A DNA stretch of 64,000 nt, from positions 128,001 to 192,000 of the forward strand of contig CAWGZR010000009.1 in NCBI GenBank assembly GCA_963827165.1. Direction: 5' to 3'. The stretch is from Candidatus Bathyarchaeota archaeon (GTDB lineage: Archaea > Thermoproteota > Bathyarchaeia > Bathyarchaeales > Bathycorpusculaceae). Position numbers and translations under genes: made by a program. The notes under the pieces are model-generated. The model saw only the letters and a list, made by a program, of their open reading frames with translations, did not search any database and was not told the DNA's origin. Shown in pieces: positions 16,584-44,963 of the stretch (its first letter is position 1; every line of letters begins with the position of its first letter).

Positions 16584-17351
16584 CTATTTCATTTCCAGAA
16601 AAATTCGTTTGAGAATTGTTGCGCCATGCCTCATCTTGAGCTTCTTTTCGCCTATTCTTTCGCGATATCTAATTGGAACTTCGACCGTTCTATAACCTTG
16701 TTTTGTCACTTGGGAGTTAAGTTCAACCTCAATATCGAAGCCTAAGGATCTTATCTTCCAACTCTTAAAAATATCTGCTCTTACAACCCTCAAACCTGTC
16801 AAAGGATCTTCAAGATCTACCCCATTCAATATGTTATGCGCTAAAGCAAGCATTCTATTTCCCAAGTAAAATTGGGTATGCAATGCCTTTTCATCTTTCT
16901 TTCCGCCCAATCTGTTTCCACAAACCATGCCCACATCAGGATTTTGCTCGAGTATCTCAATCATTGAAGGGATATGCTCTGCAGGATATGTGTAGTCAGC
17001 ATCAGTTAAAACGATGTATTTTGCTTCCGTGTCCATTAGGCTTATTCCCTTAGCGATTGCATCTCCCTTGCCAATGCCAGTCTGAAAGGCTATTTGGGCA
17101 CCTGAGTCTTTTGCAATCTCTACAGTTCTATCTCGACTATTTCCATCGACTACAAGAATGCTTGAGTTGCCCATTACCTGTTTAAATTCTTTTAGTGTTA
17201 AGCCGACACCGTTTTCTTCGTTAAGCGCAGCAACTATTAGCTGAGTGGGAGAATAATTCATCAAATTGGCTTGCAATTGCTTTTTCCTTCTTGTAAAATC
17301 CTTATGTTTCTTTGAGAAAAGTCGGTGTGGCCCATTTCTATACCAAAACAC
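16584..17351 (-). CDS. glycosyltransferase family 2 (DPM1-like)
   Basis: AALNEE, VVDGNSRDRT, GKGDAI, TDAD, D...GLR. Confidence 0.92.
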   Translation of the reverse strand: MFWYRNGPHRLFSKKHKDFTRRKKQLQANLMNYSPTQLIVAALNEENGVGLTLKEFKQVMGNSSILVVDGNSRDRTVEIAKDSGAQIAFQTGIGKGDAIAKGISLMDTEAKYIVLTDADYTYPAEHIPSMIEILEQNPDVGMVCGNRLGGKKDEKALHTQFYLGNRMLALAHNILNGVDLEDPLTGLRVVRADIFKSWKIRSLGFDIEVELNSQVTKQGYRTVEVPIRYRERIGEKKLKMRHGATILKRIFLEMK

Positions 17352-17396
17352 GTCCCTTTCCTTAATGCTAAGTTGTAAGCAGAACTAATAAGCAAT

Positions 17397-17420
17397 TGTT
17401 ATTGTAATCGTACAATCACT
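17397..17420 (-). promoter_or_regulatory. 24-bp TGT-N3-TGT-N6-ACA-N3-ACA motif, site 1 (upstream of GT2)
   Basis: minus strand AGT gat TGT acgatt ACA ata ACA attgc TTATTA. Confidence 0.6.
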
Positions 17421-17827
17421 TTTTTCAAACATATTTGGAGTCGGGTTGACATAATATATCATAGTAATTCTAGAGTTTTGCATTTGTATTTCAGTTAAGA
17501 CGATCCCAACTTGGCAGGGTTTTCATGGTAACATAAAACTGAAGATCTCTTTCAGACTCGGTTCAAATCCCGCCAGGTTCAGCCCAAACCAGAGCAGATA
17601 TGGTTTTGAACCTGATTTTTGGTGCAACTCGGCGAGCTTATTCTCAAATGAAAATTGGTTGTTGAAGGAAGTTTAGGAATTTAATATTCTGGATTCGCGC
17701 CTGTTCTAAGGTAAGACCGATATAGATTCAAACCGCTTCAAGCTCGAATTCAAGCATAAATTTCTTTACCTATTATGCCTGATTTATTGTGTTATCTAAT
17801 AATCGCATGGTCTACATTGATAGGGGT

Positions 17828-18633
17828 CTACTTCATTCGAGTTCTTTGAGGGCTTCTTCTACCCCGGTAGCTCTCATGGACAATTTTCACTATTGCCTTC
17901 ACCATTTTCGTCGGGTCAGGAGCCTGAAAAACATTTCGCCCTATCGAGGCGCCTGCTCCTCCAGCCTGCATGGACTCCCAGACCATCTGCAGAACATCAC
18001 TGTTTGTTTTCATCCTTGGGCCTCCCGCAACTACCACTGGAGCTGGACACCCCTCCACAACTTCCTTAAACGAATCTATGTCTCCAGGGTAGTTTGTTTT
18101 GACTATGTCCGCTCCCAGTTCCGCACCGATCCGCGCCGCAAGTTTTACAGCCTCGACGTCATTCTCGGACTTGACTTTTCGTCCACGAGGGTACATCATT
18201 GCAACGAGGGGCATACCCCATTTCATGCACTCCTGTGAGACAAAACCCAAAGTTTTAAGCATTTCAGACTCATTGTCCGCTCCAACATTAATGTGAACAC
18301 TCACTGCGTCCGCACCCATTATCAATGCTTCCTCAACGGTCGCCACAAGGACTTTATTGTTCGGGTCTGGACTAATACTCAGAACTCCCAGAAAGATGCA
18401 TAATCAATCCCGATGTCTCTGTCATATCTTCGATGACCATAAAGGGGAAGACCTTTGTGACCGAGAACGGCGTTTGCTCCTCCTTCAGCGACTTTATCAA
18501 CCATCTCAGAAAGCTTGACCAAGCCTTTTATGGGACCAACTGAAACCCCATGATCCATGGGCACTATGACCGTTTTCTTAGTCTGTCGGTTAAATATTCT
18601 TTCAAGTCGGATCGACTTTCCAATTAAACTCAT
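17828..18633 (-). pseudogene. class I aldolase / 2-amino-3,7-dideoxy-D-threo-hept-6-ulosonate synthase family, frameshifted (pseudogene or assembly error)
   Basis: [40 protein letters not shown] spread over several frames; about three indels. Confidence 0.85.
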
Positions 18634-18927
18634 TTCAACACCCATTTTCTATTGTTGTTCAGTTCATAAAAAATTTATGTTTAGGACCGATAACTGTCGG
18701 TGAAAAAATATCCTGTCTTTTTTGGTATGCGCACTGGCAATTTTTGAACATCTTTTTTAGCGGTAAAATGGGGCTAGGATCCACCTCTCAGCACTTAATC
18801 AAGAAAAGATTTTGAACCCAACTGGAAAAACCTGAAGACTAACCTGAGACAATTATTTTATTCTCCATTTTCGAGTTTCAGTCAAAACCCCGCACTTCGA
18901 GTGATCATGGCCAAAAAAACGTTAGAT

Positions 18928-18951
18928 TGTAGGTGTTGATTCACAGTCACA
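18928..18951 (+). promoter_or_regulatory. 24-bp motif, site 2
   Basis: TGT agg TGT tgattc ACA gtc ACA cgcc TTAAAG. Confidence 0.75.
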
Positions 18952-18991
18952 CGCCTTAAAGTAAACCTATCGACTTAATGGTGAGTAAGGC

Positions 18992-19177
18992 TTGAAAATG
19001 GGCTTGCTTGATTCACTTTTCGTAGTTGCTGGGATACTTGTTAACTTTTGGCTCTTCAGCTTTGTCTTTCTTAACATAGGTACCATAATATGGGTTCTGC
19101 CTGTCATAGCCATCATCATGGTAGTTGCACGACTGGCTTTCAGGACGCAAAATATAAAATTAGACAAAGAAAGGTAG
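18992..19177 (+). CDS. small two-TM membrane protein
   Basis: Two hydrophobic segments; downstream of motif plus TATA, GGTGAG SD. Confidence 0.6.
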   Translation: MKMGLLDSLFVVAGILVNFWLFSFVFLNIGTIIWVLPVIAIIMVVARLAFRTQNIKLDKER

Positions 19178-19380
19178 GAATAAATGGAGTAAAGGTGGAA
19201 AGATATGGGTTTTGGAAGTTGGATTGGTGGTGTAGGGCTCTGTATATTAGGAGTTCTGTTAGGATTTTTTGGACTTGCAGTTCTTTTAGGAATTTTTAAA
19301 TTCGTTGCAACGAGCCTTGATCGCCCATTAGGAATAGGTAGTTTAGTGGTATGCTCGTCCACACTCACAGCCGATAAGGA

Positions 19381-19581
19381 TTACTTCTTCTTTTGTCTTA
19401 CAGCGACTTTAGCTTTCATTTCAAAGATAGTGTCCTCGCCGGCTTTTCCAATTCCAAAGTTCCATTCTAATACCTCTACGTCCATGTCTTTGAAGTGTGA
19501 AACCAACGATTTCTGGAATTCGCTCCATTTCTCGCTCATCTTCTCTATCTGTTCCTTGACGTCTATATGATGTTCTGACAT
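19381..19581 (-). CDS. small hypothetical protein
   Basis: 66 aa, GGAGGTG SD, follows PRC-barrel gene. Confidence 0.75.
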   Translation of the reverse strand: MSEHHIDVKEQIEKMSEKWSEFQKSLVSHFKDMDVEVLEWNFGIGKAGEDTIFEMKAKVAVRQKKK

Positions 19582-19623
19582 AATTCGTTACACCTCCCAA
19601 AATATCTAAAAAAAGGCATATGT

Positions 19624-19911
19624 CTAAGCTTTTACTGGACTCAGGTACATATGCAGTTTGTCTTTTGCAACTTTTAAGTGTAATCCAGTGTCTGTCCAGA
19701 TGCCAGTCCCTTTCTCTAAAGCTGTAACGTTTAGATTGTTTCGCACTCCGCCTTTCTTTGCTCCAAGAACTGATTCAGCTACGTTTTTGTCCAATTCGAC
19801 TTCGAGATGAGTTACTTTCCACTCATTGGCGTCTACTTCCAGTTCTTTTATTTTGCCTATTTTTTCATCTAATGCAAACACGTCTTTGTCCATAAATTCT
19901 TTACTTTTCAT
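19624..19911 (-). CDS. PRC-barrel domain protein
   Basis: EFMDKDVF...KIGKIKELEVD..WKVTHLEV; GGAGG SD. Confidence 0.8.
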   Translation of the reverse strand: MKSKEFMDKDVFALDEKIGKIKELEVDANEWKVTHLEVELDKNVAESVLGAKKGGVRNNLNVTALEKGTGIWTDTGLHLKVAKDKLHMYLSPVKA

Positions 19912-19983
19912 AAATTGTCTGACCTCCTTTTACGCTCAAGACTTGAGCTACCTTATAAAGAGTCATTGGCTGGGTTAAACTCG

Positions 19984-20007
19984 TGTGACTGTGAATCAAC
20001 ACCTACA
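19984..20007 (-). promoter_or_regulatory. 24-bp motif, site 3 (identical to site 2, inverted)
   Basis: minus strand TGT agg TGT tgattc ACA gtc ACA cgag TTTAAC. Confidence 0.75.
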
Positions 20008-20332
20008 GCCCTCCACAAATATTTAAACCCTAAATTGCCATAAAGCGCTGCTTCAATTCGTCTCTGAAAGTTTCCTGTAAATGCTTCGCACATAACGGCA
20101 CTGTCAAAAGCTTGCTACGAACATCATGCCTTATTTAACTGCCCACTAACTCTGAGCCTTAATTTAACTCATGAATTTTGTCTATAGTATTCGATAATGA
20201 AGTTAAAGAAAACGTCAGGTCAGTCTCGGTACTTTCGTTTTTCCTGGAGGCTTTTTGGTTCTTGGAGCTTTGACATCGCTAAACTCGTTTCTTAACTTGT
20301 TGAGCGTGGGTGTCGGGTACGTAGTGATAGGT

Positions 20333-20356
20333 TGTAGGTGGGATACTACATAGACA
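20333..20356 (+). promoter_or_regulatory. 24-bp motif, site 4
   Basis: TGT agg TGG gatact ACA tag ACA tcaac TTAATA. Confidence 0.7.
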
Positions 20357-20419
20357 TCAACTTAATAGCGATTTACGCTCTATTCTATTCATAGTTCTGA
20401 TGGAGGTTTTTAGGTTCAG

Positions 20420-20734
20420 ATGAGTCTTACTGAGTTTGAGAAATCAAAGAAGCAAAGGCCGAAGGAGATGATTTGCGCTGAGACCTCGTTGGGATCCAAG
20501 ACTTCTAACGCAGAGCGAAGTCTGAAGGAACGTTTGCCACTCATTAAATGCGAGTGCGGAACCGAGATCTTGTTGCTGCCCGATTTGGTGGCTATGGACC
20601 GCGCTATCGATGCACATGTGGCTGAACACAGGAAAAAAGGGAATAACCCTTCTAGGGCAGCCACTTCTAGTCGTATCAGTCAGCTTTTAGCTCAATTAAT
20701 TTTAAGGAAGGCAAGTGAAGACACGCTTCATTAA
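20420..20734 (+). CDS. hypothetical protein, putative CxC...HxxxH zinc site
   Basis: IKCECG...AHVAEH; GGAGG upstream. Confidence 0.7.
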   Translation: MSLTEFEKSKKQRPKEMICAETSLGSKTSNAERSLKERLPLIKCECGTEILLLPDLVAMDRAIDAHVAEHRKKGNNPSRAATSSRISQLLAQLILRKASEDTLH

Positions 20735-20845
20735 TTATCAGCTGTTCCCGAAAAAAGAAGATAGAGCGCTTGCTTTGTTGAAGTATAATAATCAAATATG
20801 GAAAAAATAAGATAAGAACGAAAGATATTGAGATGAAATTAAGTT

Positions 20846-21619
20846 ATGGCAGTTTTAAAAATTTTCGAGCCGTCAGTAGACTTTGTTGACAAGTGTGAGA
20901 ATTTGCATGTAGGCTATTCACCTTTAGAAAAACATAATCCGGATTTTAGCTCAACTCAGGTTATCGTTGCAGCTTTGAACGAAGAAGAGGGAATTGGACT
21001 TACGATCGCAGAACTTATGGATAATCTTAATTCGCCTCATATCCTAGTTGTTGACGGTCATAGCAACGACAGGACTGTGGAGATCGCAAAGAATCTTGGT
21101 GTGGATATTGCTTTTCAAGACGGCGTTGGCAAAGGAGATGCCATCGTTAAAGCGTTAAGACTAACACACGGCGACGTAGATTATGTTGTACTTACGGATG
21201 CTGATTTCACTTACCCAGCTAAGCATGTTCCCGAGATGATTAAAATTTTAGAGCAAAACCCTGATGTGGGCATGGTTTGTGGTAACCGATTTACATCTCA
21301 ACTAGATAACAAAGCGTTGATCAACCGATTTTATTTGGGAAACAAGCTTCTTGCGTTCAGTCATAATATTCTAAACGGCATAACTCTTAACGATCCCTTA
21401 ACAGGTCTGCGCGTCATTCGAGCAGAACTACTCAAAAACCTGAAATTGAAATCGAGTGGCTTTGACATCGAAGTAGAACTAAATAGCATAGTACAGAAGA
21501 AAGGTTATAAAACAGTTGAAGTGCCAATAGAATATCGCCAAAGAATAGGTGAGAAAAAACTCAAAATGAAGCATGGTTTAACAATATTCAAAAGAATAGT
21601 GACTGAAATGATGTTTTAA
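20846..21619 (+). CDS. glycosyltransferase family 2 (DPM1-like), paralog of 16584..17351
   Basis: AALNEE, VVDGHSNDRT, GKGDAI, TDAD. Confidence 0.92.
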   Translation: MAVLKIFEPSVDFVDKCENLHVGYSPLEKHNPDFSSTQVIVAALNEEEGIGLTIAELMDNLNSPHILVVDGHSNDRTVEIAKNLGVDIAFQDGVGKGDAIVKALRLTHGDVDYVVLTDADFTYPAKHVPEMIKILEQNPDVGMVCGNRFTSQLDNKALINRFYLGNKLLAFSHNILNGITLNDPLTGLRVIRAELLKNLKLKSSGFDIEVELNSIVQKKGYKTVEVPIEYRQRIGEKKLKMKHGLTIFKRIVTEMMF

Positions 21620-21853
21620 TTAGCGCGCTCGGGAACGGAACCTTTTCTAAAAGGCATTCATGTTTACACTTAAAACCAGATATATCCTAAAAGGGAAAAA
21701 AAGACTATAATTCGCGTTTTTTTGAGGATGAGCTCGGTAGAGATTAACACTTTCAGGTTTGAATCCAATGATTTTCTTTATGAAGAAAATGGGACCATGT
21801 TCTTGATTGTCATGACTATATCTTTTTCACGCGCGCGGCACTGATTGAAAAAC

Positions 21854-22834
21854 TTATCGAATTCGTAGATCCTTTTTTCTTTCAATCAAGTCTGTGATTT
21901 CGTCAAATTCGCTGGTGTAGTCTTTATGTTCCTTAACTAATCTTTTTAGTCTGTTTTGGTTAAAGTAGCCTTCGTAGAATCCGAAGAACATAATCGCAAA
22001 GAATCCATACATTAGATAGTTGCCAAAAGCGGCCATGCCTTGCGTGACAACTAGGAGTATAATCGGAAAAAGCACACCGAGAGAACCAATATACGCAGAC
22101 ATTGCTCCAATTAGAGCGCCCATAACATCAATCTTATTATCATTTATACTCTTGGCCAGACCTGCTTTTCTTTCCCAGAGCGTTGACGTGTCGCTGAAAT
22201 CAACTGCACTAAACAAGCTATCAAAAGCTCCGATCGAAATATGGTTTGTTCGATTTTTGAAGGCGCTGTTCATTTTTTGGTGATAGAACTCGCGATGTTC
22301 TTGGTATTCACGCTTTATGATGGTAGCATCTATGTACGGTGTCCTTCTAACCATGCGAATAGCGTACTTTACGTTTTCAACAAACTTTTTGCCGACGAGT
22401 TCTTGTTCAGCTTTTTTTGCCGCGCGTGCCTCATTAAGTATATCTTGTTTTTCTTCATCCTTCAGAGTTTGTTTTTCTTTAGCTGTCATCATTTTGTGCG
22501 AAAATCGATGGTCATTAATACATTTGTAAATTATAGTTGAAAAGGGGTGAGGTACATAGAATTCTGAGACTTTTTCTGCACAATAGGGGCATATGTATCC
22601 AGAATCGTGCCAATCTGGGTCTTCAGTTATCTTCTTTCCATTATTTTTTTCCCATTGTTTTATCCAATGTCTTGTCTGACCCCAGCCACCGCTTAAACTG
22701 AGATAAAGAACTTTTGATTCTTTTATCGCTTGAATGATATCTTCTTCTGTTCGCGCTTGAATCTTTTCAACTTTTGTTTTGGTTTGCTCTTGCTGCGTTT
22801 TCTCTTCTATTGTGGGCTTTTCTATTTCATACAT
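21854..22834 (-). CDS. hypothetical membrane protein with zinc-ribbon
   Basis: CPYC...C-x3-H, charged helical region, two C-terminal TM segments. Confidence 0.75.
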   Translation of the reverse strand: MYEIEKPTIEEKTQQEQTKTKVEKIQARTEEDIIQAIKESKVLYLSLSGGWGQTRHWIKQWEKNNGKKITEDPDWHDSGYICPYCAEKVSEFYVPHPFSTIIYKCINDHRFSHKMMTAKEKQTLKDEEKQDILNEARAAKKAEQELVGKKFVENVKYAIRMVRRTPYIDATIIKREYQEHREFYHQKMNSAFKNRTNHISIGAFDSLFSAVDFSDTSTLWERKAGLAKSINDNKIDVMGALIGAMSAYIGSLGVLFPIILLVVTQGMAAFGNYLMYGFFAIMFFGFYEGYFNQNRLKRLVKEHKDYTSEFDEITDLIERKKDLRIR

Positions 22835-22991
22835 TTTTGTCCCTTTGTGTTAAAGAAATCCGTTTGGGGTCGGCTCTTTGTTTTTTAGAAACTCAAGGTT
22901 TTTTTTGAGCTTAAAGGTAGTTGCTCGATCACACACACTGCATGCTACCGCTTCTTTAACTAAAAAATCTTCATTTCCATATTTATGCGTG

Positions 22992-23015
22992 TGTGGATGG
23001 GACGCCCCAGCAACA
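22992..23015 (-). promoter_or_regulatory. 24-bp motif, site 5
   Basis: minus strand TGT tgc TGG ggcgtc CCA tcc ACA cacgc ATAAATA. Confidence 0.55.
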
Positions 23016-23124
23016 TTAAAGCCAGTTTGGGCAAAATTTTTTTAATAATTCAATTTCTGAAAGATAATACTAATGGAACATGATAATTAAGAGATAATAG
23101 AGATTTTTTAACATCCTACCGCTC

Positions 23125-23148
23125 TGTCGGTGTGAGACAACAGTTACA
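23125..23148 (+). promoter_or_regulatory. 24-bp motif, site 6
   Basis: TGT cgg TGT gagaca ACA gtt ACA cagac TTAATA. Confidence 0.75.
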
Positions 23149-23197
23149 CAGACTTAATAGAGATTTGCGCCCATATGTAACTTAGAAGACATAATTT

Positions 23198-23620
23198 ATG
23201 AACAATCTTATCATTGGAAATATCAGTTTAATGAGCCTTATCGTAACTATAATTGGCTTGATTATTCTTTGGGTAGTAGTCTCAATACCCGTATGGCTAG
23301 CCGGCAAGGCATTAACTGGCGGAAAAGCCACCTTTGGGGAAGCCATGCTTGCCACACTGTTTGGCCCAATAGTTTATGCTATCACGTTGTTCGTAGTGGG
23401 CTACTTCCTGGGAACGCTAATTGGCTCAACCGCGTATGTAATCGCATTAATTTTAGCGCTTTTAGCGTGGATATGGGTCTACAAAGCAAGCTTCAGAATA
23501 GGCTGGCTAAGCGCAATCGCAATAGCAATACTGGCATGGATAATCTTCGTCGTAATAAGCATAATATTTGGAGCCCTCTTCGGCATAGTGGTTCCGGGAA
23601 CGTTCTTCCCCCACATTTAA
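23198..23620 (+). CDS. integral membrane protein (about 4 TM)
   Basis: Hydrophobic 140-aa ORF. Confidence 0.8.
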   Translation: MNNLIIGNISLMSLIVTIIGLIILWVVVSIPVWLAGKALTGGKATFGEAMLATLFGPIVYAITLFVVGYFLGTLIGSTAYVIALILALLAWIWVYKASFRIGWLSAIAIAILAWIIFVVISIIFGALFGIVVPGTFFPHI

Positions 23621-23706
23621 AATGAACGTGAATTTTTTTCACGCAAAATTGTTTAAAACAAATCATTTGCGAAACTATACAAATATCCAAAGAGGTGAAC
23701 TAAAAA

Positions 23707-24027
23707 ATGAAGAATAATTTTGCTTACTGGGGATACATCCTTGCGTTAATAGGTGGAATACTCATAATCGTTTTTGGCTTACTTGGTCTTATAGGATCTT
23801 CTTTTGGCAGCACTTTCTCACCGGCTGGTTACTACTTGACGGGAGTAATGTACAGCATAGTGGCAATAGTAATTGGTGCGATCTGTGTAATTGGGTCAAA
23901 GTCCATTGGAATCTTGCCTTGGGCAATAGTGCTATTAGTACTTGGAATCGTTTCAGGCGGAATCGGAGGAGTCTTAGTTGTTCTCGGAGCCCTTCTGGGA
24001 TTACTTTCAATATTCGCTAAGTCGTAG
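23707..24027 (+). CDS. Gly-rich integral membrane protein
   Basis: 106 aa, 3-4 TM, GAGGTG SD. Confidence 0.8.
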   Translation: MKNNFAYWGYILALIGGILIIVFGLLGLIGSSFGSTFSPAGYYLTGVMYSIVAIVIGAICVIGSKSIGILPWAIVLLVLGIVSGGIGGVLVVLGALLGLLSIFAKS

Positions 24028-24139
24028 CCCAAATAGGTGAAACCAAAAAACTTCAAAAAATCTTTTTTCATGTAACTTTTTTGGTGATTTTCTGCAACAA
24101 TTGCTTTTCTTTTAGATTCGCGTCATTTATTGAGCTTTT

Positions 24140-24163
24140 TGTCGGTGTGGGGTTACAGCTACG
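24140..24163 (+). promoter_or_regulatory. 24-bp motif, site 7
   Basis: TGT cgg TGT ggggtt ACA gct ACG caag TTTAAAA. Confidence 0.7.
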
Positions 24164-24216
24164 CAAGTTTAAAAGCTGTATATACGCTTATAATTACAAT
24201 TGTGGAGATGTAGATC

Positions 24217-24543
24217 TTGGGCGCGGTAGATCAAGTATTTCATTTTATTACTTCTGGAAGCATAGGCGGATTATCACCTATTGTATTAATGATAATAATA
24301 TTCGTCGTGGGATTAATTGTAGGCTACTTAGTTCACTTATTCTTAAAGATCGCCATTATAGCTGCAATTATAATATTCATAGTTGCGTACTTCGGCTTCT
24401 TCGGCTTAAGCCTTGGTGCATTGAAAAGTTATGCAACCCAATACGGCTCAATTGTATATCAGTATGGAGCACTCATCATAGGCATCCTACCTTTGAGCAT
24501 TGGATTTATAGTAGGTGTAATCATCGGCTTCGTATTGGGATAA
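24217..24543 (+). CDS. small membrane protein (possibly FUN14-like)
   Basis: GLIVGYLV..FLKIAII..FIVAY pattern, 3 TM. Confidence 0.65.
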   Translation: MGAVDQVFHFITSGSIGGLSPIVLMIIIFVVGLIVGYLVHLFLKIAIIAAIIIFIVAYFGFFGLSLGALKSYATQYGSIVYQYGALIIGILPLSIGFIVGVIIGFVLG

Positions 24544-24615
24544 ACTAAACATTCCTCTACGGGGTTTGAAGGAGTCTCTCTAAAGAGATTTTGAAAAGAG
24601 GGAAGTAACTTCTCT

Positions 24616-24639
24616 TGTCTATGTCGCTTCCCAGTCACA
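24616..24639 (+). promoter_or_regulatory. 24-bp motif, site 8
   Basis: TGT cta TGT cgcttc CCA gtc ACA cag TTATTTAT. Confidence 0.7.
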
Positions 24640-24682
24640 CAGTTATTTATCGAACCAAACGATATTATTACAAGTAAAGTGG

Positions 24683-25135
24683 TTGATTAATATGGCAACT
24701 CCAGATGATATAAAGAACATACTTGGCTCCAACGAAAAAGTTGAATTATACATTGAGGAAAAAATCTATCATCCTCGAATTAACATAGAATCTGTGATCA
24801 TAACGAATGAACGGATAATTTTTCGGCATCCCCACGCGCTTGGTTTAAAGAAAGACTACACTGATTACAGCTATAGGGATGTAACGAATGTGACGTTAAA
24901 AAAAGGAATAAAACGTTCAACCATCAGGCTCACGGTTAAGCATGGGTTAGAAAATCAGGGAAAGCAGCAAGAAGGCGAGGATCTGGATTTGGATAACCTA
25001 CCAAACGATCTTGCAGAAAAGGGATATGGCATTATCAGAGAAAATATTGGCAAATTCCAATCACCATTTTCTACTGGATATGCGACTACTCCAAACGAAA
25101 CCCCAAATAGTCAACAGCAACCTAGCAACCGCTAG
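24683..25135 (+). CDS. bacterial-type PH domain protein
   Basis: LGSNEKV...VIITNERIIF...DYSYRDVTNV. Confidence 0.8.
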   Translation: MINMATPDDIKNILGSNEKVELYIEEKIYHPRINIESVIITNERIIFRHPHALGLKKDYTDYSYRDVTNVTLKKGIKRSTIRLTVKHGLENQGKQQEGEDLDLDNLPNDLAEKGYGIIRENIGKFQSPFSTGYATTPNETPNSQQQPSNR

Positions 25136-25322
25136 AAATCCTTTTTGCCGTCAATACTTTTTTTTTAACGCAGGTTTTTATTTAATAAAAATAAAGCTAA
25201 TTAGCGATCTGACTGAAGGCGTCATATTCGAATCTTGCCAGGATCCTTTTTTTAATCCCTTCCTTAACTTCAAGGAACTAAAAAGATAAATATGTCAGGA
25301 TACAAAAATATTAACAGATAGA

Positions 25323-26108
25323 ATGACGAACGATGAAAACACTGACCTGCTGCTTGGTTTGGGTTTGACTCTTAACCAGGCAAAGGTTTACTTGGCCGTA
25401 ATTAAACTCGAAAAAACAACAGTTGGACAAGTCGCGAGTTTTTCGAAAGTGCGTAGGGAAGATGTCTATAGGATTTTACCATCACTTGAAAAAATGGGTT
25501 TGGTTGAAAGATTACTGGGCAAACCGACTGAGATTAGAGCTACTCGCATTTCAGATGCCTTAAGCCTCTTGGTTGCCGAAGAAAAAGGCAAATTTGACGA
25601 GCGGCTTGTGGGAATGAGAGGTATAGTCCAAAAACTATCCCTTAAAGACTGGAAGCAAGAACTTCCTAAAGAAGAAAGCATTTACATACTAATTGCAGAA
25701 AAGAAATCAATTCTTGCTAAAACCGCGGATCTTATATGTAATTCCAAAAAAGAAGTCGCCTTAATTGCAGATAAAGGCAGAATTATGCCGGTTTTATTTC
25801 AATTTTCCGATGAATATACGCTCGCAATAAAGAACGGTACTGTGATTCGGTTGCTTTTTGAAGGCGAAAAACCGGATGCCATACTCAAAGAAAAAGTTAC
25901 AAAACTCATCGGTGCCACCTCGGTTCAGGTAAAGTTTCACGCTGAGCCTTTGAATCATTTTCTAATGTCGGACGATAAAGAAGCATTAATCACTACCTCC
26001 AAAGAAAGCGGATTAGGGGAAAGCCCCTCTTTATGGACGAACAATAGCAACCTCATAGGTGTGTTAAGGACAAGTTTTGAATCGGATTGGAAAAAAGCTG
26101 AATGCTAA
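25323..26108 (+). CDS. TrmB family transcriptional regulator
   Basis: LGLTLNQAKVYLA..VRREDVYRILPSLEKMGLVE wHTH plus C-terminal PLD-like effector domain. Confidence 0.9.
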   Translation: MTNDENTDLLLGLGLTLNQAKVYLAVIKLEKTTVGQVASFSKVRREDVYRILPSLEKMGLVERLLGKPTEIRATRISDALSLLVAEEKGKFDERLVGMRGIVQKLSLKDWKQELPKEESIYILIAEKKSILAKTADLICNSKKEVALIADKGRIMPVLFQFSDEYTLAIKNGTVIRLLFEGEKPDAILKEKVTKLIGATSVQVKFHAEPLNHFLMSDDKEALITTSKESGLGESPSLWTNNSNLIGVLRTSFESDWKKAEC

Positions 26109-26433
26109 ACCGAGAAACTGAGGTTTATACAGAGCGATGCCACTTTACAGTCTGCACAGCGAGACAATTCGTAATATTTCACAAACAAAGGCGTCGTTTT
26201 GCATCTTGACCGGTAATCCCCCGAAGAAACATGGGAAAATGTAAAATAAGCCGTTTTGGTTAGCACGCAATGTTAAAGCGACAGCAGAATGAACAATGGA
26301 TTGTAGCAGCAGCCTTGGCCGAAACCGCATAACCGTTTCTTTGCAATATTTTAGCCAAGTTGACAATACATCAACAGCAACCGATAGCAATGGTGCAATA
26401 ACTCTTTCTAGCCTTTTTCCTTAGTTTTCAACT

Positions 26434-26733
26434 TCAAACAAAGAGATGAGGGGTTACCTGAGCGGTTCTGTAATAGATTTCTTCACCTATCGCTTCCTTA
26501 ATTACTTTTTTCTCTATTTTCTTCTCTTCCGCTAATTTATCTAGAGCCTTCCTTAGTTGAATCGCAAGCTCATAACTAATCGGCTCTTTTGTGACCAAGT
26601 ATCCCAGGCCTTCCATTATACTTACAAGATTAAAAGCGCGATTCATGTTTTCTTTTTTGTTCAGAAAGGACATTATTCTGTCTTCAACTGGATGTACTTT
26701 TCCAGAATCCCATTCTTCAGTATCAATTGGCAT
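26434..26733 (-). CDS. hypothetical protein (winged-helix-like)
   Basis: RIMSFL..AFNLVSI..LRKALDKLAEEKKI..YY. Confidence 0.65.
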   Translation of the reverse strand: MPIDTEEWDSGKVHPVEDRIMSFLNKKENMNRAFNLVSIMEGLGYLVTKEPISYELAIQLRKALDKLAEEKKIEKKVIKEAIGEEIYYRTAQVTPHLFV

Positions 26734-27006
26734 TTTAGTCCCAATGTGTTAAAGGTTTTGTAAGAATTAAAGCTAGTACTTTCAAATTACCTCTTCAATT
26801 AAATATAACACAGCTTCTGTTTTGGGTATAATCTTTTCTTTATCGTAGCCAATGATAAAAACGCGTGAAATCGTAATCAATACCATGGCTGAAGTTAGAA
26901 GTGTCGCTTCAGAAACTGGAGTTGAACTTACATAATATTCAAGATGTGTATGTTTTCTGGCTGTTCCGATAAAGAAGAATATGTTAAGCTATCCCGTAGC
27001 ACCAAG

Positions 27007-27417
27007 CTACACTTTCAAAAAGATAACTTCGTTCAACAATCTGAAATGCTCGTCTCCCGTAACGACTTTTGCATTGAAATTTTTTGCCGTGCACAAAATA
27101 ATTGAATCGGCCAAACCCCAGCATTTCGCTTTTTCTTTTAAATCTACATTTAGTTTACCTGCGTCAGCTGCAATTTCAAAATCCAAGTCAACGATCATGC
27201 TTGTGGCGCGTATAAATTCTAGACGTTTTAACCTACCATCAGGGGTTTCATTTCCCAGTTCGATTTCCTTTTGCAGTTTTCTGCTGATTTCCGAAATCAC
27301 AATTGTCGGAGTGGCTGATTGTCCATCTTCTATATACTCTCTTGCGATTACCCCTAATTCTGAAGCTTTGAAGTATTCTATCCAAGCATAGGCGTCGATA
27401 ATGTATTTACAGCTCAT
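27007..27417 (-). CDS. vapC: VapC PIN-domain toxin
   Basis: IIDAYAWIEYF..E..LADSII..VVTGDEHF. Confidence 0.92.
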   Translation of the reverse strand: MSCKYIIDAYAWIEYFKASELGVIAREYIEDGQSATPTIVISEISRKLQKEIELGNETPDGRLKRLEFIRATSMIVDLDFEIAADAGKLNVDLKEKAKCWGLADSIILCTAKNFNAKVVTGDEHFRLLNEVIFLKV

Positions 27418-27607
27418 GGAATTCTGCCTCGTCCTGTTTCGAGAAAGAATTCAATTTACGGTTTGAGCCAAACATAGAGCAAGGAATTTTTTTTCTTTCG
27501 ACAATTAGTGTTCTTATTACTTCGTCGTGGCTTTTCATTTTCATCTCTTTCTTAACTCTATTGAGCATCTGAAGAGTCTTTTCGTTTACCTGAACTGTTG
27601 TCGGCAC
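27407..27607 (-). CDS. vapB: VapB-type antitoxin
   Basis: TTVQVNEKT..L...SHDEVI; overlaps vapC; palindrome TAACTATAGTTA upstream. Confidence 0.85.
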   Translation of the reverse strand: MPTTVQVNEKTLQMLNRVKKEMKMKSHDEVIRTLIVERKKIPCSMFGSNRKLNSFSKQDEAEFHEL

Positions 27608-27754
27608 TTTTCAACACGACTGTAACTATAACTATAGTTATAGCCTATTAATATTTTCATAGAAGATTTTGAATCGTCCATAATTCCCATCAACCGCAGA
27701 TGCACCTGCTAATAAATTCCAAAAATTAATATTCTCCCGCATGCCCAGATGAAA

Positions 27755-27786
27755 ATCCTTTCCCGCAGAGGTTCGCAGGTTCGAAT
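27755..27786 (+). repeat. att-like partial copy of tRNA-Leu 3' exon
   Basis: atcctttcccgcagaggttcgcaggttcgaat vs atcctttccctcaggggttcgcaggttcgaat. Confidence 0.85.
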
Positions 27787-27865
27787 TAACCCCTGCAACA
27801 AAAATAATCTAAATTTTTTATAGGAAAATTTTAGTAAGCCAATCCCTTAAAAGGTAATCGTTCCC

Positions 27866-28117
27866 TTGGTGGCTAAATTGGCTAAGACAGTCATGACTGA
27901 GCAGGAGAAGAGAGATCTTAAGATCATCGCTATAGAACTCTTAGAAATCCGCAAGCTTGTTGATGAACTTGCCGAAAGCTTGGTAAACTTAAGCGACAAA
28001 GAGTTGCTAAAGTTATGTAATGCAAACCAAGATAACGAGATTAAGGAAAAACAAGTAGACAAGTACAAAGAAAAACTGGAAAAACAACTGGACATCGCCG
28101 AAAAAGAATTTCGATAA
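27866..28117 (+). CDS. hypothetical protein
   Basis: 83-aa charged helical ORF. Confidence 0.6.
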   Translation: MVAKLAKTVMTEQEKRDLKIIAIELLEIRKLVDELAESLVNLSDKELLKLCNANQDNEIKEKQVDKYKEKLEKQLDIAEKEFR

Positions 28118-28203
28118 TAAGCACCCGAACGAGCATCTTTTCATCTGGAGGCTTGCAGCTCACGGGCGGCCAAAGAGCTTTTAGCAATTCAACTAAATGT
28201 TTC

Positions 28204-29259
28204 CTAAAACTTAATGAGTGGTTTTATGACGCCATCCAGCTTTTTATCCATTATTTCAAATGCTTTGTCGGCCTCATCAAACGTGAATGTATGAGTGGTC
28301 ATACGCGTTGGATCAATTTTCCGATTCTCTAATAGCAGCAGTAATCTTTGCAGCCTTAAGCGTCCTCCTGGGCACAATGAGGTTTTTATGGTTTTTTGAG
28401 ACATCCCAACACCCCAATCCAACCTAGGAATACAAACGCACTCGCCAACGCCATGATATCCTACATTTGATATTGTTCCGCCAGGCTTTGTGACCTTAAT
28501 GGAGTTCTCAAATGTGATATCTGCTCCAAGCGCTTCAATCGAGCCATCTACACCCAAACCCGCAGTTAAATCCATTATTCTGGCCACCGCGTTTTCTTTA
28601 GCTGGGTCAACAATCAAATCTGCACCGTAAAACTTCGCAAGCTCTTGTCGCTTAGGCACTGAATCGACTCCCACTATCACGCCTGCACCCCTGAATTTGG
28701 CTCCAGCAACTGCCATGAGACCCACGGGTCCCAGAGCAAACACCACCGCTGAACCCCCTATAGGAATGTTAGCCTCTTCAGCACCTGCAAATCCAGTTGA
28801 CATCATGTCAGCCACATAAACGGCGGCTTCATCAGGCACATCATCAGGGATCTTTGCCATGTTAGCGTCCGCCTCATTAACATGAAAATACTCTGCAAAC
28901 ACGCCGTCCTTGGTGTTAGAAAACTTCCATCCGCCCAATGGTTGACCAGATTGAGATGGGTGGCCTCCTTGAGAAGCGATATCTCCCCAGTCAGGCGTTA
29001 TAGCGCCGACAGCAACTCGGTCACCGGGCTTAAAGATTTTCACTTGGCTGCCAACTTTGTTGACTACACCCGTGGCTTCATGTCCAAGAGTCAGGTTCGC
29101 ACGTTGACCAATCGCGCCCCGCACAGTATGCGAGTCTGAGGTACAAACTAAGGCGACTTTTGTCTTTACAATTGCGTCGTTTGGTCCGACCTCAGGAAGA
29201 GGTTTTTCCATGAACCCGACGCTGCCTATTTCCTTCATTACAAAAGCTTTCATAGACAT
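28204..29259 (-). CDS. adh: zinc-dependent secondary alcohol dehydrogenase (MDR)
   Basis: CTSDxH, LGHE, AITPDW, GPVG; Thermoanaerobacter ADH-like without structural Zn Cys. Confidence 0.92.
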   Translation of the reverse strand: MSMKAFVMKEIGSVGFMEKPLPEVGPNDAIVKTKVALVCTSDSHTVRGAIGQRANLTLGHEATGVVNKVGSQVKIFKPGDRVAVGAITPDWGDIASQGGHPSQSGQPLGGWKFSNTKDGVFAEYFHVNEADANMAKIPDDVPDEAAVYVADMMSTGFAGAEEANIPIGGSAVVFALGPVGLMAVAGAKFRGAGVIVGVDSVPKRQELAKFYGADLIVDPAKENAVARIMDLTAGLGVDGSIEALGADITFENSIKVTKPGGTISNVGYHGVGECVCIPRLDWGVGMSQKTIKTSLCPGGRLRLQRLLLLLENRKIDPTRMTTHTFTFDEADKAFEIMDKKLDGVIKPLIKF

Positions 29260-29295
29260 CTTAGTGCTCTCTAGCTTTCAGATTATTTCAATATT

Positions 29296-29319
29296 TGTGA
29301 CTGCCATTTCACAGTTACA
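29296..29319 (-). promoter_or_regulatory. 24-bp motif, site 9 (upstream of ADH)
   Basis: minus strand TGT aac TGT gaaatg GCA gtc ACA aata TTGAAATA. Confidence 0.65.
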
Positions 29320-29378: not shown

Positions 29379-30398
29379 TTATCCTGATGCGAGCCAGTTT
29401 ATCATAAAGCTTAAGCCGTCAGGGGTTAAGTCGGATACGTCGGTTAGTTGGACTTGCCCGATCGAAGACATAGGCGACGAATACGCGGTTAGCGCCTCCC
29501 AAGGGAAATTTCCAATCCCACCAATAGTAGAATTAATGGTCGCGGTGCAGTTTGTGAACGTCACATTTCCGAAGTCCATCAACTCCGAAAGGTTGCCGTC
29601 GACTGTCGGTCTTTCAACTATCCACTCGGCCGTCAATCGGCTTGAATCATAGATAAAATTCCTCTGAAACTGTTGCGAGGAGTTAGTGTCCATTATGCTG
29701 ATTCCCCATTGATCGGATGTCCCATTCGCAAGCTGAATTGAAGCCTGCATCATATCCCCAGGTGAAATAGGCATAGAGAAAATGGTGGTCGATAACCTTG
29801 GCAAAAGCTCGAACCACGCGAAATATCTTGCTTGACCGTCAATTGAATCCTGTTCGGTTCCGCATTGGATGAGTGTGCTGTCATTGTTGAATTGTCCACC
29901 TATGCCTATCCAGATAGCAGAATAGGTGTCGTTGGTGGTGGAAGTTACTACTATTGGAACGACCCATGAGGCACTGATGGCTGTCGCGCTGGGTTGAGGG
30001 TTTTGTAGATCAGAGGAAACCACGTAGCCTGCCCAGTTCATCGTAGGCGTTACGTTTTGTGGGGGCGTCGGGGTCGCCGTCGGCGTAGGTGAAGGTGTCG
30101 GTGCGGGTGTTGGCGAGGCTGTTGGAACCGGAGTAGACACAGGTGTTGGTATAGAAGTTGGCTGGATTGTGGGAATGGGAGTTGGCTCTGAAGTTGGATT
30201 TGGGATTGGAGTTGATGTAGGCATCGATGTTGGCTGCGGTGTGGGTGTTGATGATGAAGTAACGATGGGAGATGGAGAAGGCTGATAACTTTTTTTTGCA
30301 GGCGTTGATTGGAACACAGCATACGCTCCAAAAGCGTCGGCAAACACAATTGCAACCAGCAACAAAGCAAGGACTTTGGCGACAGTTCCCTGTTTCAT
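29379..30398 (-). CDS. G1 family glutamic endopeptidase with N-terminal anchor and Pro/Thr linker
   Basis: NWAGY, WIGIGG, LIQCGT, AEWIVERP. Confidence 0.88.
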   Translation of the reverse strand: MKQGTVAKVLALLLVAIVFADAFGAYAVFQSTPAKKSYQPSPSPIVTSSSTPTPQPTSMPTSTPIPNPTSEPTPIPTIQPTSIPTPVSTPVPTASPTPAPTPSPTPTATPTPPQNVTPTMNWAGYVVSSDLQNPQPSATAISASWVVPIVVTSTTNDTYSAIWIGIGGQFNNDSTLIQCGTEQDSIDGQARYFAWFELLPRLSTTIFSMPISPGDMMQASIQLANGTSDQWGISIMDTNSSQQFQRNFIYDSSRLTAEWIVERPTVDGNLSELMDFGNVTFTNCTATINSTIGGIGNFPWEALTAYSSPMSSIGQVQLTDVSDLTPDGLSFMINWLASG

Positions 30399-43857: not shown

Positions 43858-44963
43858 TCAAAACCCTTCTATCTCGAGTCTTTTGAGGAAAGCACCCAAT
43901 TTTTCCCATGTTGGATGTTTTCCTTCGGGATCTGACAGGTAGCAGGCTGCAACCGCATTCGCCAACGTCAATCGGCACATGTCTGAAAGACCGTTGCGGT
44001 CGCCGACAATATTACCTGCTGTCCAAGCATCGCCCGCGCCCGTTGCCCGAAGCACCTTAACCCTGAAAGTGGGCGCAACAACCTCCGTTTTTCCCTTCAA
44101 AGTAGCCGAAAAAGCTGTAGGTGTGCAAATCAATTCGCGCCTTCAGATACTCTCGCCAAAACCCTTGCTGCCTCCATCGCCAACTCCTCAAACGGCAAAT
44201 GCTTTTTTTTGTCGTCAAAAGCGCTGTCAAGCAGGCGAGCATACACAATGGCTTCGTTCTCGTTCAGGCTCAAAATGTCGATTAGGTCGGAGTTGAAGGA
44301 TTTTCTTGATTAAGTCAGGAACGCGCCGCGAGGTTTGGCGTTGGGTCGGCGGTGTCATAATAAGTTTTTCCTTTTCCCTGTTTTTTGGTTCGGCTAAAAA
44401 CTGTCTGGGCGAGTTGTGTGCCATTTTTCGTGTGCCAGCCCAATTGAAAAGGCATGTATAGTCCGCATCTTCTATGTCTGCGTAATCGTCTTCGTTGAGG
44501 TCGTCTGGTCCGAAATCGGCCAGGGCGCCTAAGTCGCGTATCATAACGTTTGTTTTTGTGTCTTTGTTCTTGAACTCCAACGCGGTAGTTATCGAAGCTT
44601 TGCCCAAACCTTAACGTGTGAAAGTGTCGACTTCCGTGCCTCTGAAATAGTACTTTAATCTGCTGCAGTCCCCACTCGCTTGTGCACACAATCGGCGTAA
44701 CCTCTGGCTCCCAAGGTTTGCCAGGGCCGATGCCACATTAATTGCGTTTCCACCTTGCATGTCAGTTTGGGGAACGCCGTCTATGCTGCCGCCTTTGCGT
44801 TTTGCAACATCCCCGATTAACCGCGAAAACTCCTTGTGGATTCCAATCCAGGTTGATTAGACGGTCAAGGAAAAAATCAGGTAGAACCGTGACTTTGCAT
44901 TCTTTTCGGCTGTCTGGCTTTACGAGATTTTCCAGTTCTTTTTTGCATTCACAATGGACATGA
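43858..44963 (-). CDS. PfkB family carbohydrate kinase, multiply frameshifted
   Basis: GGNAINVASAL, TGAGDAW, ANAVA fragments in several frames. Confidence 0.78.

Follow-up and report, generated by a model that had tools for sequence, protein, structure and literature searches.

A 24-bp dyad of the form TGT-N3-TGT-N6-ACA-N3-ACA stands just upstream of the TATA box in about 60 promoters of a Candidatus Bathyarchaeota archaeon, and we estimate with a probability of roughly 0.85 that it is the operator of a transcriptional regulator and that it defines a stress-type regulon. The element was first noticed in an initial annotation of a 64-kb stretch of this genome (G000:C9:128001-192000, referred to below as the window; the assembly, G000, comprises 3.13 Mb in 14 contigs). 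All nine copies listed there were recovered, at window positions 17397, 18928, 19984, 20333, 22992, 23125, 24140, 24616 and 29296, with 0–2 mismatches to the pattern, although nine proved far too low a count for the genome. The proposal that the copies represent one cis-element of a regulon is supported by a genome-wide excess of the motif, its intergenic placement, its rigid register with the TATA box and its conservation upstream of orthologous genes in many species. Since the site is two-fold symmetric, its reader is more likely to be a dimeric regulator than a basal factor.

In the window, 11 matches with at most two mismatches were found compared to 2.73 expected; the largest count in 100 shuffles was 8, and none reached 11. 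The two matches beyond the original nine, at 44559 and 49520, carry two mismatches each and look like chance occurrences. Across the 3.13 Mb, the bare pattern with at most one mismatch gave 46 matches, compared to four for the pattern read backwards. We then built a weight matrix from 23 sites that have a TATA hexamer 3–4 nt downstream and scanned the genome with it, which yielded 61 sites of at least 16 bits, compared to 2 in the reversed genome and 6, 8 and 8 in three 50-nt window shuffles. Because the matrix was seeded with the pattern of the initial annotation, its scores are partly circular; the 61 sites are far above the 23 used for training. The motif is also rarer in coding DNA, since 66 of the 75 merged matches of at least 14 bits are intergenic even though 73–81% of each contig is marked as coding. 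Several of the nine "coding" matches are probably errors of the open reading frame (ORF) caller, because a TATA box starts at +4 or +5 and is followed by what could well be a small gene.

In the direction of the gene, the sites have the consensus TGT-nRY-TGY-N6-ACA-[G/A][T/C]C-ACA, with 9-nt arms separated by 6 nt, so that the inner triplets are spaced by N6 and the outer triplets by N18. The promoter-side half of the operator is better conserved than the distal half. The distance to the TATA box is nearly fixed. A strict hexamer, [CT]TTA[AT][AGT], with a background frequency of 0.0065 per offset, starts at +4 in 23 of 122 flanks compared to 0.8 expected, while the neighbouring offsets +3, +5 and +6 have 3, 1 and 5 occurrences. 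Taking +3 to +5 together, 27 of the 61 sites have the hexamer, compared to 3.9% of 20,000 random intergenic positions.

We also compared these promoters with the ordinary promoters of the genome, which have an A-rich transcription factor B recognition element (BRE) at −3 to −7 from the TATA box and no ACA pattern. The proximal ACA of the operator falls at −5 to −7, within this zone. The initial annotation had suggested that the bound factor might compensate for a weak BRE. The base at −3 is A in 18 of 27 oriented sites, compared to 52% in ordinary promoters, while −4 and −6 are occupied by the spacer and the motif. A T/A-rich patch lies 21–24 nt past the start of the TATA box, where a promoter-proximal element would sit. 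The layout suggests a composite promoter consisting of the operator, 4 nt (sometimes 3) and a YTTAAR TATA box; this arrangement would place the operator at about −59 to −36, overlapping the distal BRE, and transcription would be expected to start about 35 nt past the site.

Chance occurrence or a repeat as the source of the copies was ruled out by the window shuffles, the weight-matrix controls and the TATA register. A dispersed repeat or a mobile promoter cassette was likewise rejected, as the flanks and the N positions differ between sites; the only exceptions are the pairs 18928/19984, with 26 identical nt, and 20333/23125.

Target genes and distribution among relatives

The genes behind the sites were identified by Pfam assignment. 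In the window they encode two GT2 glycosyltransferases, a DUF5670-like small membrane protein, a PRC-barrel protein, a bacterial-PH (bPH) domain protein, a zinc alcohol dehydrogenase and several small proteins without a known family. Elsewhere in G000 the targets include an accessory thermosome subunit, a DEAD-box helicase, MsrA, two KGG-repeat proteins, a hemerythrin, a PNPOx-like protein and a multicopper oxidase, together with TatC, BrkB, an MFS transporter, a receiver-domain protein, two stand-alone Lrp/AsnC ligand domains, two DUF5752 proteins, a second PRC-barrel protein, two HTH_45 proteins and C2H2 zinc-finger proteins. In G020, a genome of the same genus of which we inspected 20 promoters, the targets encode a fasciclin protein, a fasciclin protein with two C2H2 fingers, an alcohol dehydrogenase (ADH_N), two DUF5752 proteins, CsbD, two DUF5670 proteins, a PRC-barrel protein, TatC and two C2H2 proteins. 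Further targets in G102, which belongs to another family of the class, are DUF1428, tautomerase and CHRD proteins and small membrane-anchored proteins, one of them with a sub-threshold DUF883_C match.

The KGG and CsbD proteins are described as sigma-S-dependent small stress proteins in Salmonella (PMC5437024). The initial annotation had guessed at a general-stress programme from the window alone, and the targets outside it (the accessory thermosome subunit, MsrA, KGG, CsbD, hemerythrin, DEAD-box helicase and PNPOx-like proteins) strengthen that guess. Judged by these family assignments, the targets, mostly small stress-type proteins, read as a general-stress-like regulon.

The best site of the genome, at 29.6 bits, precedes a gene (G000:C4:254014-254751, locus L025) whose product fuses a fasciclin (FAS1) domain to two C2H2 fingers and has no evident signal peptide. 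Full-length copies with 58–86% identity were found in 7 of the 24 other genomes of the genus (G016, G020, G013, G009, G023, G012 and G001), and in six of the seven the six-frame match crosses one or two in-frame stop codons, mostly TGA.

We surveyed the motif in 24 genomes of the same genus, in 16 from other families of the order and in a class sample of 151 genomes that includes G000. These relatives are Candidatus Bathyarchaeia or Bathyarchaeota metagenome-assembled genomes from peat, palsa, fen, bog and soil, and also include Ca. Bathycorpusculum. Among the 24 congeneric genomes, 20 show enrichment, with 18–48 matches compared to 1–11 in the control; no enrichment was found in G006, G018 and G024, and G011, which is 58% complete, is ambiguous. 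The other families of the order yielded no enriched genome among the 16 scanned. In the class sample, enrichment is confined to the genus, to G113 (23 matches versus 8), which represents a sister genus of the same family, and to G102 (99 versus 4), where the copies have the identical layout of site, 4 nt and TATA box. Two congeners in the class sample, G118 and G148, are not enriched. Overall, 20–100 promoters carry the site in related Bathyarchaeia from soil, peat and termite gut. Mis-binned DNA as the origin of the G113 contigs was rejected: the contig with the HTH_45 gene is 81–83% identical to its own genus compared to 74–75% to the genus of the window, while the contig with the TrmB-like gene is 94–96% identical everywhere and thus does not discriminate between the genera.

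Conservation at individual genes varies. The accessory thermosome gene has kept the site in six of seven genomes, with varying N positions, and the seventh copy has an internal stop. The bPH gene behind site 8 of the window was discarded as a conserved target, since only 3 of 17 homologues from 12 genomes have kept the site (those of G000, G003 and G013); the bPH homologue of G102, 50% identical, also has one. A bPH protein 77% identical to that of the window, closer than most same-genus copies, is encoded at G040:C1:373734-374132 in a motif-free genome of another family of the order, which suggests that the gene reached it by lateral transfer. In G102, a cluster of three sites (L054, G102:C73:5000-15017) adjoins a phage-type integrase gene, and part of the regulon of that genome may lie on an integrated element.

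Mode of action and candidate regulators

We hypothesize that a dimeric, sequence-specific transcription factor binds the 24-bp dyad just upstream of the TATA box in fixed register, and that the bound factor would help TFB and TBP to bind, so that signal-dependent binding would switch on the whole set of genes. Activation is the sign that we favour, by a modest margin, because of the rigid register and because of archaeal precedents for upstream sites: for TrmBL1/Tgr, Ptr2 and TFB-RF1, sites upstream of the BRE and TATA box are associated with activation (PMC4158304), OxsR activates from such a site (PMC9426492), and the archaeal repression sites described in the same two sources lie on or past the TATA box or the start site.

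The strongest candidates for the factor itself are small Sso10a-like winged-helix proteins of the HTH_45 family, of which G000 has about 20 loci. Three of these have the site upstream: one weak case and the genes that we call type A (G000:C2:42263-42598 (−); about 112 residues, 75.9 bits to the Pfam HTH_45 profile with a cut-off of 25.5) and type B (G000:C4:92718-92951 (−); 78 residues, 45.7 bits against the same cut-off). Orthologues of type A, 50–73% identical, were compared in 13 genomes, and all 13 have a site of 15–28 bits in the same position, with ttcg and TTTAAG coming next. Among species representatives, the site is upstream of type A in 34 of 35 and of type B-like genes in 8 of 9. 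In a quick tree, types A and B and a G113 protein (G113_C134) form one clade (SH-aLRT 88) of 20 members, and in 15 of these a site scoring 14 bits or more is present. Type A or B was found in 18 of 23 motif-rich genomes of the genus and in none of the five motif-poor ones, and a prediction made for five fresh genomes was correct in all five, with type A in the motif-rich G143, G166 and G172 and not found in the motif-poor G118 and G148. The HTH_45 family as a whole is expanded to about 20–25 loci in G000 and G102, compared to 4–10 in motif-poor relatives.

The candidate matches Sso10a (PDB 1r7j) with an E value of 2.5e-8, and the same structure is its top Foldseek match (target TM 0.74, root-mean-square deviation 2.3 Å). 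A homodimer was modelled with an ipSAE of 0.53, compared to 0.00 for the best control; of 30 solved homodimers, 20 attained that mark, as did 1 of 23 single chains. The runs share at least 68% of contacts, and the partner pLDDT is 72. The modelled interface is an antiparallel C-terminal helix. Because the Sso10a dimer has already been solved, the model may reflect this likeness only. We propose that the HTH_45 protein would dimerise through this helix and regulate its own gene, and that a cysteine in helix 1, Cys48, which is invariant in 20 of 20 aligned sequences, might act as a thiol switch. This cysteine, together with oxidative-stress genes among the targets, suggests that the signal is redox.

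Proteins of this kind have been studied in the Sulfolobales. Sso10a/Sul10a (HTH_45; PDB 1r7j and 4hw0) shares the fold and, if the model holds, the antiparallel coiled-coil dimer. The candidates differ in an additional N-terminal segment (type A), in the invariant cysteine and in having a specific, conserved site upstream of the genes that encode them. In PMC4941522 the Sso10a proteins figure as architectural components of chromatin, able to bend, bridge or coat DNA, and sequence-specific regulation has only been presumed, on the strength of their fold. The 2004 structure paper on Sso10a reportedly places the recognition helices about 55 Å apart, which would suit half-sites at a spacing of 15 bp, but the figure is unconfirmed and we do not use it as evidence.

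Several points weigh against this account. The 23 training sites had been found with the very pattern that the initial annotation supplied, the gene calls are crude ORF calls, and the phyletic counts overstate the support because related genomes are not independent. Membership of the regulon also appears to be fluid, as the bPH gene illustrates. As for the candidate itself, type A or B is not present in every genome that bears the regulon. Neither was found in the motif-rich G016, G020 and G022, which are 94–95% complete, with single queries and a profile, nor in G009 and G021 (56% and 65% complete) with single queries or a profile. A profile search for hidden members of types A and B in G016, G020, G022 and G021 gave none; of the 20 loci fetched, the only one with a site upstream was a gene of G102, and this site-linked HTH_45 gene is not an orthologue of either type. 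Furthermore, Cys48 lies outside the modelled dimer interface. Finally, the operator overlaps BRE positions −5 to −7, as would suit a repressor that competes with TFB, and the candidate regulator genes themselves carry the site, which fits negative autoregulation.

These last two points lead to the opposite sign of control, in which a repressor bound on the distal BRE beside the TATA box would bar TFB and TBP until stress made it let go, which would derepress the regulon. Regulators more often control their own genes negatively, and a bacterial parallel exists in HrcA, a repressor that acts on an inverted-repeat operator before chaperone genes. The regulated promoters also look able to fire unaided, because the core TATA box is of good consensus and A is kept at −3. 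However, for a repressor it is enough to overlap the core promoter, and more than one register will usually do, whereas here the hexamer is at +4 in 23 flanks and at neighbouring offsets in one to five, and the archaeal sites described upstream of the BRE and TATA box are associated with activation (PMC4158304, PMC9426492). We regard repression as the less likely sign, though it is the most serious of the competing explanations.

The choice of factor has to be left among several candidates, because none of them occurs in all motif-bearing genomes. HTH_45 type A/B heads the list at a little short of even odds by our estimate, and there is an appreciable but clearly smaller chance that the factor is something not yet seen. 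Annotation of 47 ORFs on the site-bearing contigs of G113 revealed no clear regulator besides TrmB, HTH_45 and an RHH-AIRS fusion. For the whole chain of dimeric-factor operator, activation and HTH_45 as the factor, the balance of what can be read from these genomes tips just in favour.

Less probable is a C2H2 zinc-finger protein, either of the small single-finger type (about 45–100 residues) or of the type with a fasciclin domain and two fingers, acting as a dimer or tetramer with one finger for each TGT/ACA triplet. One zinc finger reads three bases, and on such general grounds a motif of four triplets could be explained. The zf-C2H2 family (PF00096) is present in 21 of the 24 congeneric genomes and missing exactly in the motif-poor G006, G018 and G024, and the 16 genomes that represent other genera of the order gave no match to it. 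In the class sample it is present in the motif-rich G013, G017, G143, G166 and G172 and in G102, and was not found in the motif-poor G118 and G148. Some C2H2 genes are also driven by the site, namely the gene at C7:3556 and the fasciclin-C2H2 operon behind the 29.6-bit site in G000, three genes in G020 and one in G102. As members of the regulon, though, C2H2 genes would track the motif in any case, and only two of the six C2H2 loci in G000 have a site. Moreover, G113 bears the motif but gave no C2H2 match at E ≤0.001 although it is 95% complete, and C2H2 matches are present in many motif-free genomes of other families (21 of 33 in family f24 and all four in f21). The proteins have no evident dimerisation domain, and the N-terminal half of the 80-residue type is proline-rich and looks disordered.

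The TrmB-family protein encoded in the window at 25323-26108 (+) was also considered, as a regulator of the local island and, through paralogues, of a wider set; we judge this a poor prospect. Its gene, TrmBL2-like over its full length, lies directly 3′ of the site-8 gene in the densest cluster of sites, and the 84% identical orthologue of G113 likewise lies directly 3′ of a site-driven gene in a cluster of four sites. In the motif-free congeners G169 and G181 the TrmB paralogues are just 29–30% identical, and the bPH site is kept only in the genomes that have the orthologue (G000, G003, G013). TrmB-family proteins are, in addition, known activators and repressors that act on palindromes (PMC4158304). 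On the other side, orthologues of at least 70% identity exist in just 4 of the 24 congeneric genomes (G002, G003, G013 and G019), compared to 20 of 24 that are motif-rich, and G102, with 99 sites, has a single TrmB-family match, 25% identical. The gene's own promoter lacks the motif. The known TrmB operators (TGM and TACT-type) have a shorter half-site spacing and the opposite arm order, as given in PMC4158304. As a universal regulator the TrmB-like gene was rejected for its few close orthologues. Like HTH_45, the TrmB family is greatly enlarged in the genus: its matches number 5–19 in 18 of the 24 congeneric genomes and 0–2 in the other six; in other genera of the order there are 0–3 in 15 of 16 genomes and 6 in one.

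Least probable by far is that the motif is no regulator site but marks a promoter class for an alternative general factor, for instance an additional paralogue of TFB or TBP that recognises a longer element upstream; the rigid TATA register, the BRE overlap and the five TFB genes of G000 would suit it, but we rejected an alternative TFB since TFB copies do not follow the motif (two in the motif-rich G113 and in each of the motif-free G169 and G181, three in G102 and about five in the motif-free G106), and a 24-bp element with two-fold symmetry is unlike the target of the asymmetric TFB-TBP complex.

The site cluster in the window

The nine sites of the window, all intergenic on inspection of the sequence, lie within 12 kb and form the densest patch of the genome-wide set. 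According to the initial annotation, each site ends shortly before a TATA-like box that points at the nearest gene. A box is indeed present at a gap of 3–4 nt, but it is less canonical at three of the sites (22992, 24616 and 29296). The distances given from site to start codon, 37–73 nt and one of 158, agree with the 36–72 nt and 157 nt that we measured from the end of the site to the start.

Site 1 (17397..17420, −) has one mismatch and 20.5 bits, and a cttatt box at 17387-17392 (−), after a gap of 4 nt, points at a GT2 glycosyltransferase gene (16584-17351(−)). Between this site and the next, a DeoC/LacD-family aldolase (17828-18645, −) is split into two ORFs, 17828-18346 and 18379-18645, that cover profile positions 80–229 and 1–57; from the sequence this would be a frameshift, a pseudogene or an assembly error. 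Site 2 (18928..18951, +) is perfect at 25.7 bits, and its cttaaa box at 18955-18960, after 3 nt, precedes the gene of the DUF5670-like small membrane protein (18992-19177(+), with a probable ATG at 18998). Site 3 (19984..20007, −) has a tttaac box at 19974-19979 (−) after 4 nt and faces the PRC-barrel gene (19624-19911(−)). The 24-mers of sites 2 and 3 are exact reverse complements, and the identity extends to 26 nt (18928-18953 and 19982-20007), in inverted orientation, about 1 kb apart and flanking the divergent DUF5670-like and PRC-barrel gene pair. The promoter may thus have been duplicated or converted recently.

Site 4 (20333..20356, +), with one mismatch and a cttaat box at 20361-20366 after 4 nt, precedes a 104-residue gene without a known family (20420-20734(+)) and then a GT2 gene (20846-21619(+)). 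In G113, a homologue of the 104-residue protein with 55% identity is encoded directly upstream of the TrmB-like orthologue. Site 5 (22992..23015, −) is the weakest copy, with two mismatches, 17.3 bits and a cataaata box (−), 157 nt before a 326-residue gene without a known family (21854-22834(−)). Site 6 (23125..23148, +), perfect at 21.9 bits, has a cttaat box at 23153-23158 after 4 nt and is followed by two genes for small membrane proteins, 23198-23620(+) and 23707-24027(+). Sites 4 and 6 had been said to share a downstream stretch, and 18 of 20 bases are in fact identical there, in a stretch that the genome has nowhere else; the two sites have in common the TATA box and 13 nt beyond it (20357-20380 and 23149-23172). 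Either the sites share a second element or the promoter has been duplicated.

Site 7 (24140..24163, +; one mismatch, 21.0 bits) has a tttaaa box at 24168-24173 after 4 nt and precedes another gene for a small membrane protein (24217-24543(+)). Site 8 (24616..24639, +; one mismatch, 16.4 bits) has a ttatttat box after 3 nt and drives the bPH gene (24683-25135(+)), just 3′ of which is the TrmB-family gene. Further along in the cluster, a PIN-domain gene (27007-27417) overlaps a 66-residue upstream ORF (27407-27607), together spanning 27007-27607 (−), and the pair looks like a VapBC-type toxin-antitoxin module. Site 9 (29296..29319, −; one mismatch, 23.0 bits), whose box reads attgaaataa, belongs to the zinc alcohol dehydrogenase gene (28204-29259(−)), with 36 nt between the site and the ATG. 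Adjoining this target is a gene for a peptidase A4 of the scytalidoglutamic peptidase family (29379-30398, −), which is unusual for archaea.

Known systems and implications

The system is of a known kind, a palindromic operator beside an archaeal core promoter combined with a winged-helix regulator. TGM/TrmBL1-Tgr, Ptr2, TFB-RF1 and OxsR all resemble it in having a palindrome directly upstream of the BRE and TATA box, a regulon of several promoters and a winged-helix dimer as the reader, which is predicted here (PMC4158304, PMC9426492). OxsR in particular is comparable to the HTH_45 candidate, being small, made of one winged-helix domain, endowed with a conserved cysteine and in charge of a stress regulon (PMC9426492). 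The operators differ, in that ours has 9-6-9 geometry with four TGT/ACA triplets whereas theirs are TATCAC-N5-GTGATA, TACT-type or CG-repeat sequences in these sources (PMC4158304, PMC9426492). In addition, the TATA register here is much more rigid, the candidate is an HTH_45 protein and not TrmB or Lrp, and the present system is known from sequence alone. We rejected identity with the TGM/TrmBL1-Tgr regulon, which has TATCAC-N5-GTGATA operators and sugar-metabolism genes, whereas our operator has 9-nt arms, a 6-nt spacer and the reverse order of arms (GTGAY outside), and its targets are of the stress type.

In gene content, the regulon is reminiscent of the bacterial sigma-S and sigma-B regulons, with KGG-repeat and CsbD-like small proteins (PMC5437024), a PNPOx-like protein, MsrA and small membrane-anchored proteins. 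Another likeness is that one promoter signature is common to the set. Here a dyad operator beside the TATA box would take the place of a sigma factor, and induction by stress is predicted from the gene content. To our knowledge, archaea have no sigma factors.

A full-text literature search returned no paper on a Bathyarchaeia regulon or binding motif. Within the searched literature, the motif, the regulon, the fixed fusion to TATA and the possible regulatory role of Sso10a-like proteins are new. A fuller picture, which we put forward tentatively and think is unlikely to hold in every part, is that soil and peat Bathyarchaeia have a counterpart of the bacterial general stress response: a cysteine-bearing Sso10a-like dimer would sense redox or other stress, bind an operator that replaces the distal BRE four bases from the TATA box, and recruit the basal machinery to 60–100 promoters, many of them for bacterial-type stress proteins (KGG, CsbD, PNPOx-like and small membrane-anchored proteins).

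We know of nothing on gene regulation in the Bathyarchaeia, an abundant and uncultured class of archaea. The regulon is large, clean and testable, having a defined operator, a fixed TATA spacing and a short list of regulators, and its gene set tells us which proteins, many without known function, are deployed together. The motif also gives a computational handle for annotating stress genes in hundreds of metagenome-assembled genomes, and it opens a route to testing Sso10a-like proteins as sequence-specific regulators. If this fuller picture is true, the Sso10a/HTH_45 family would for the first time have an operator and a regulon defined for it; its members have until now been treated as chromatin proteins.

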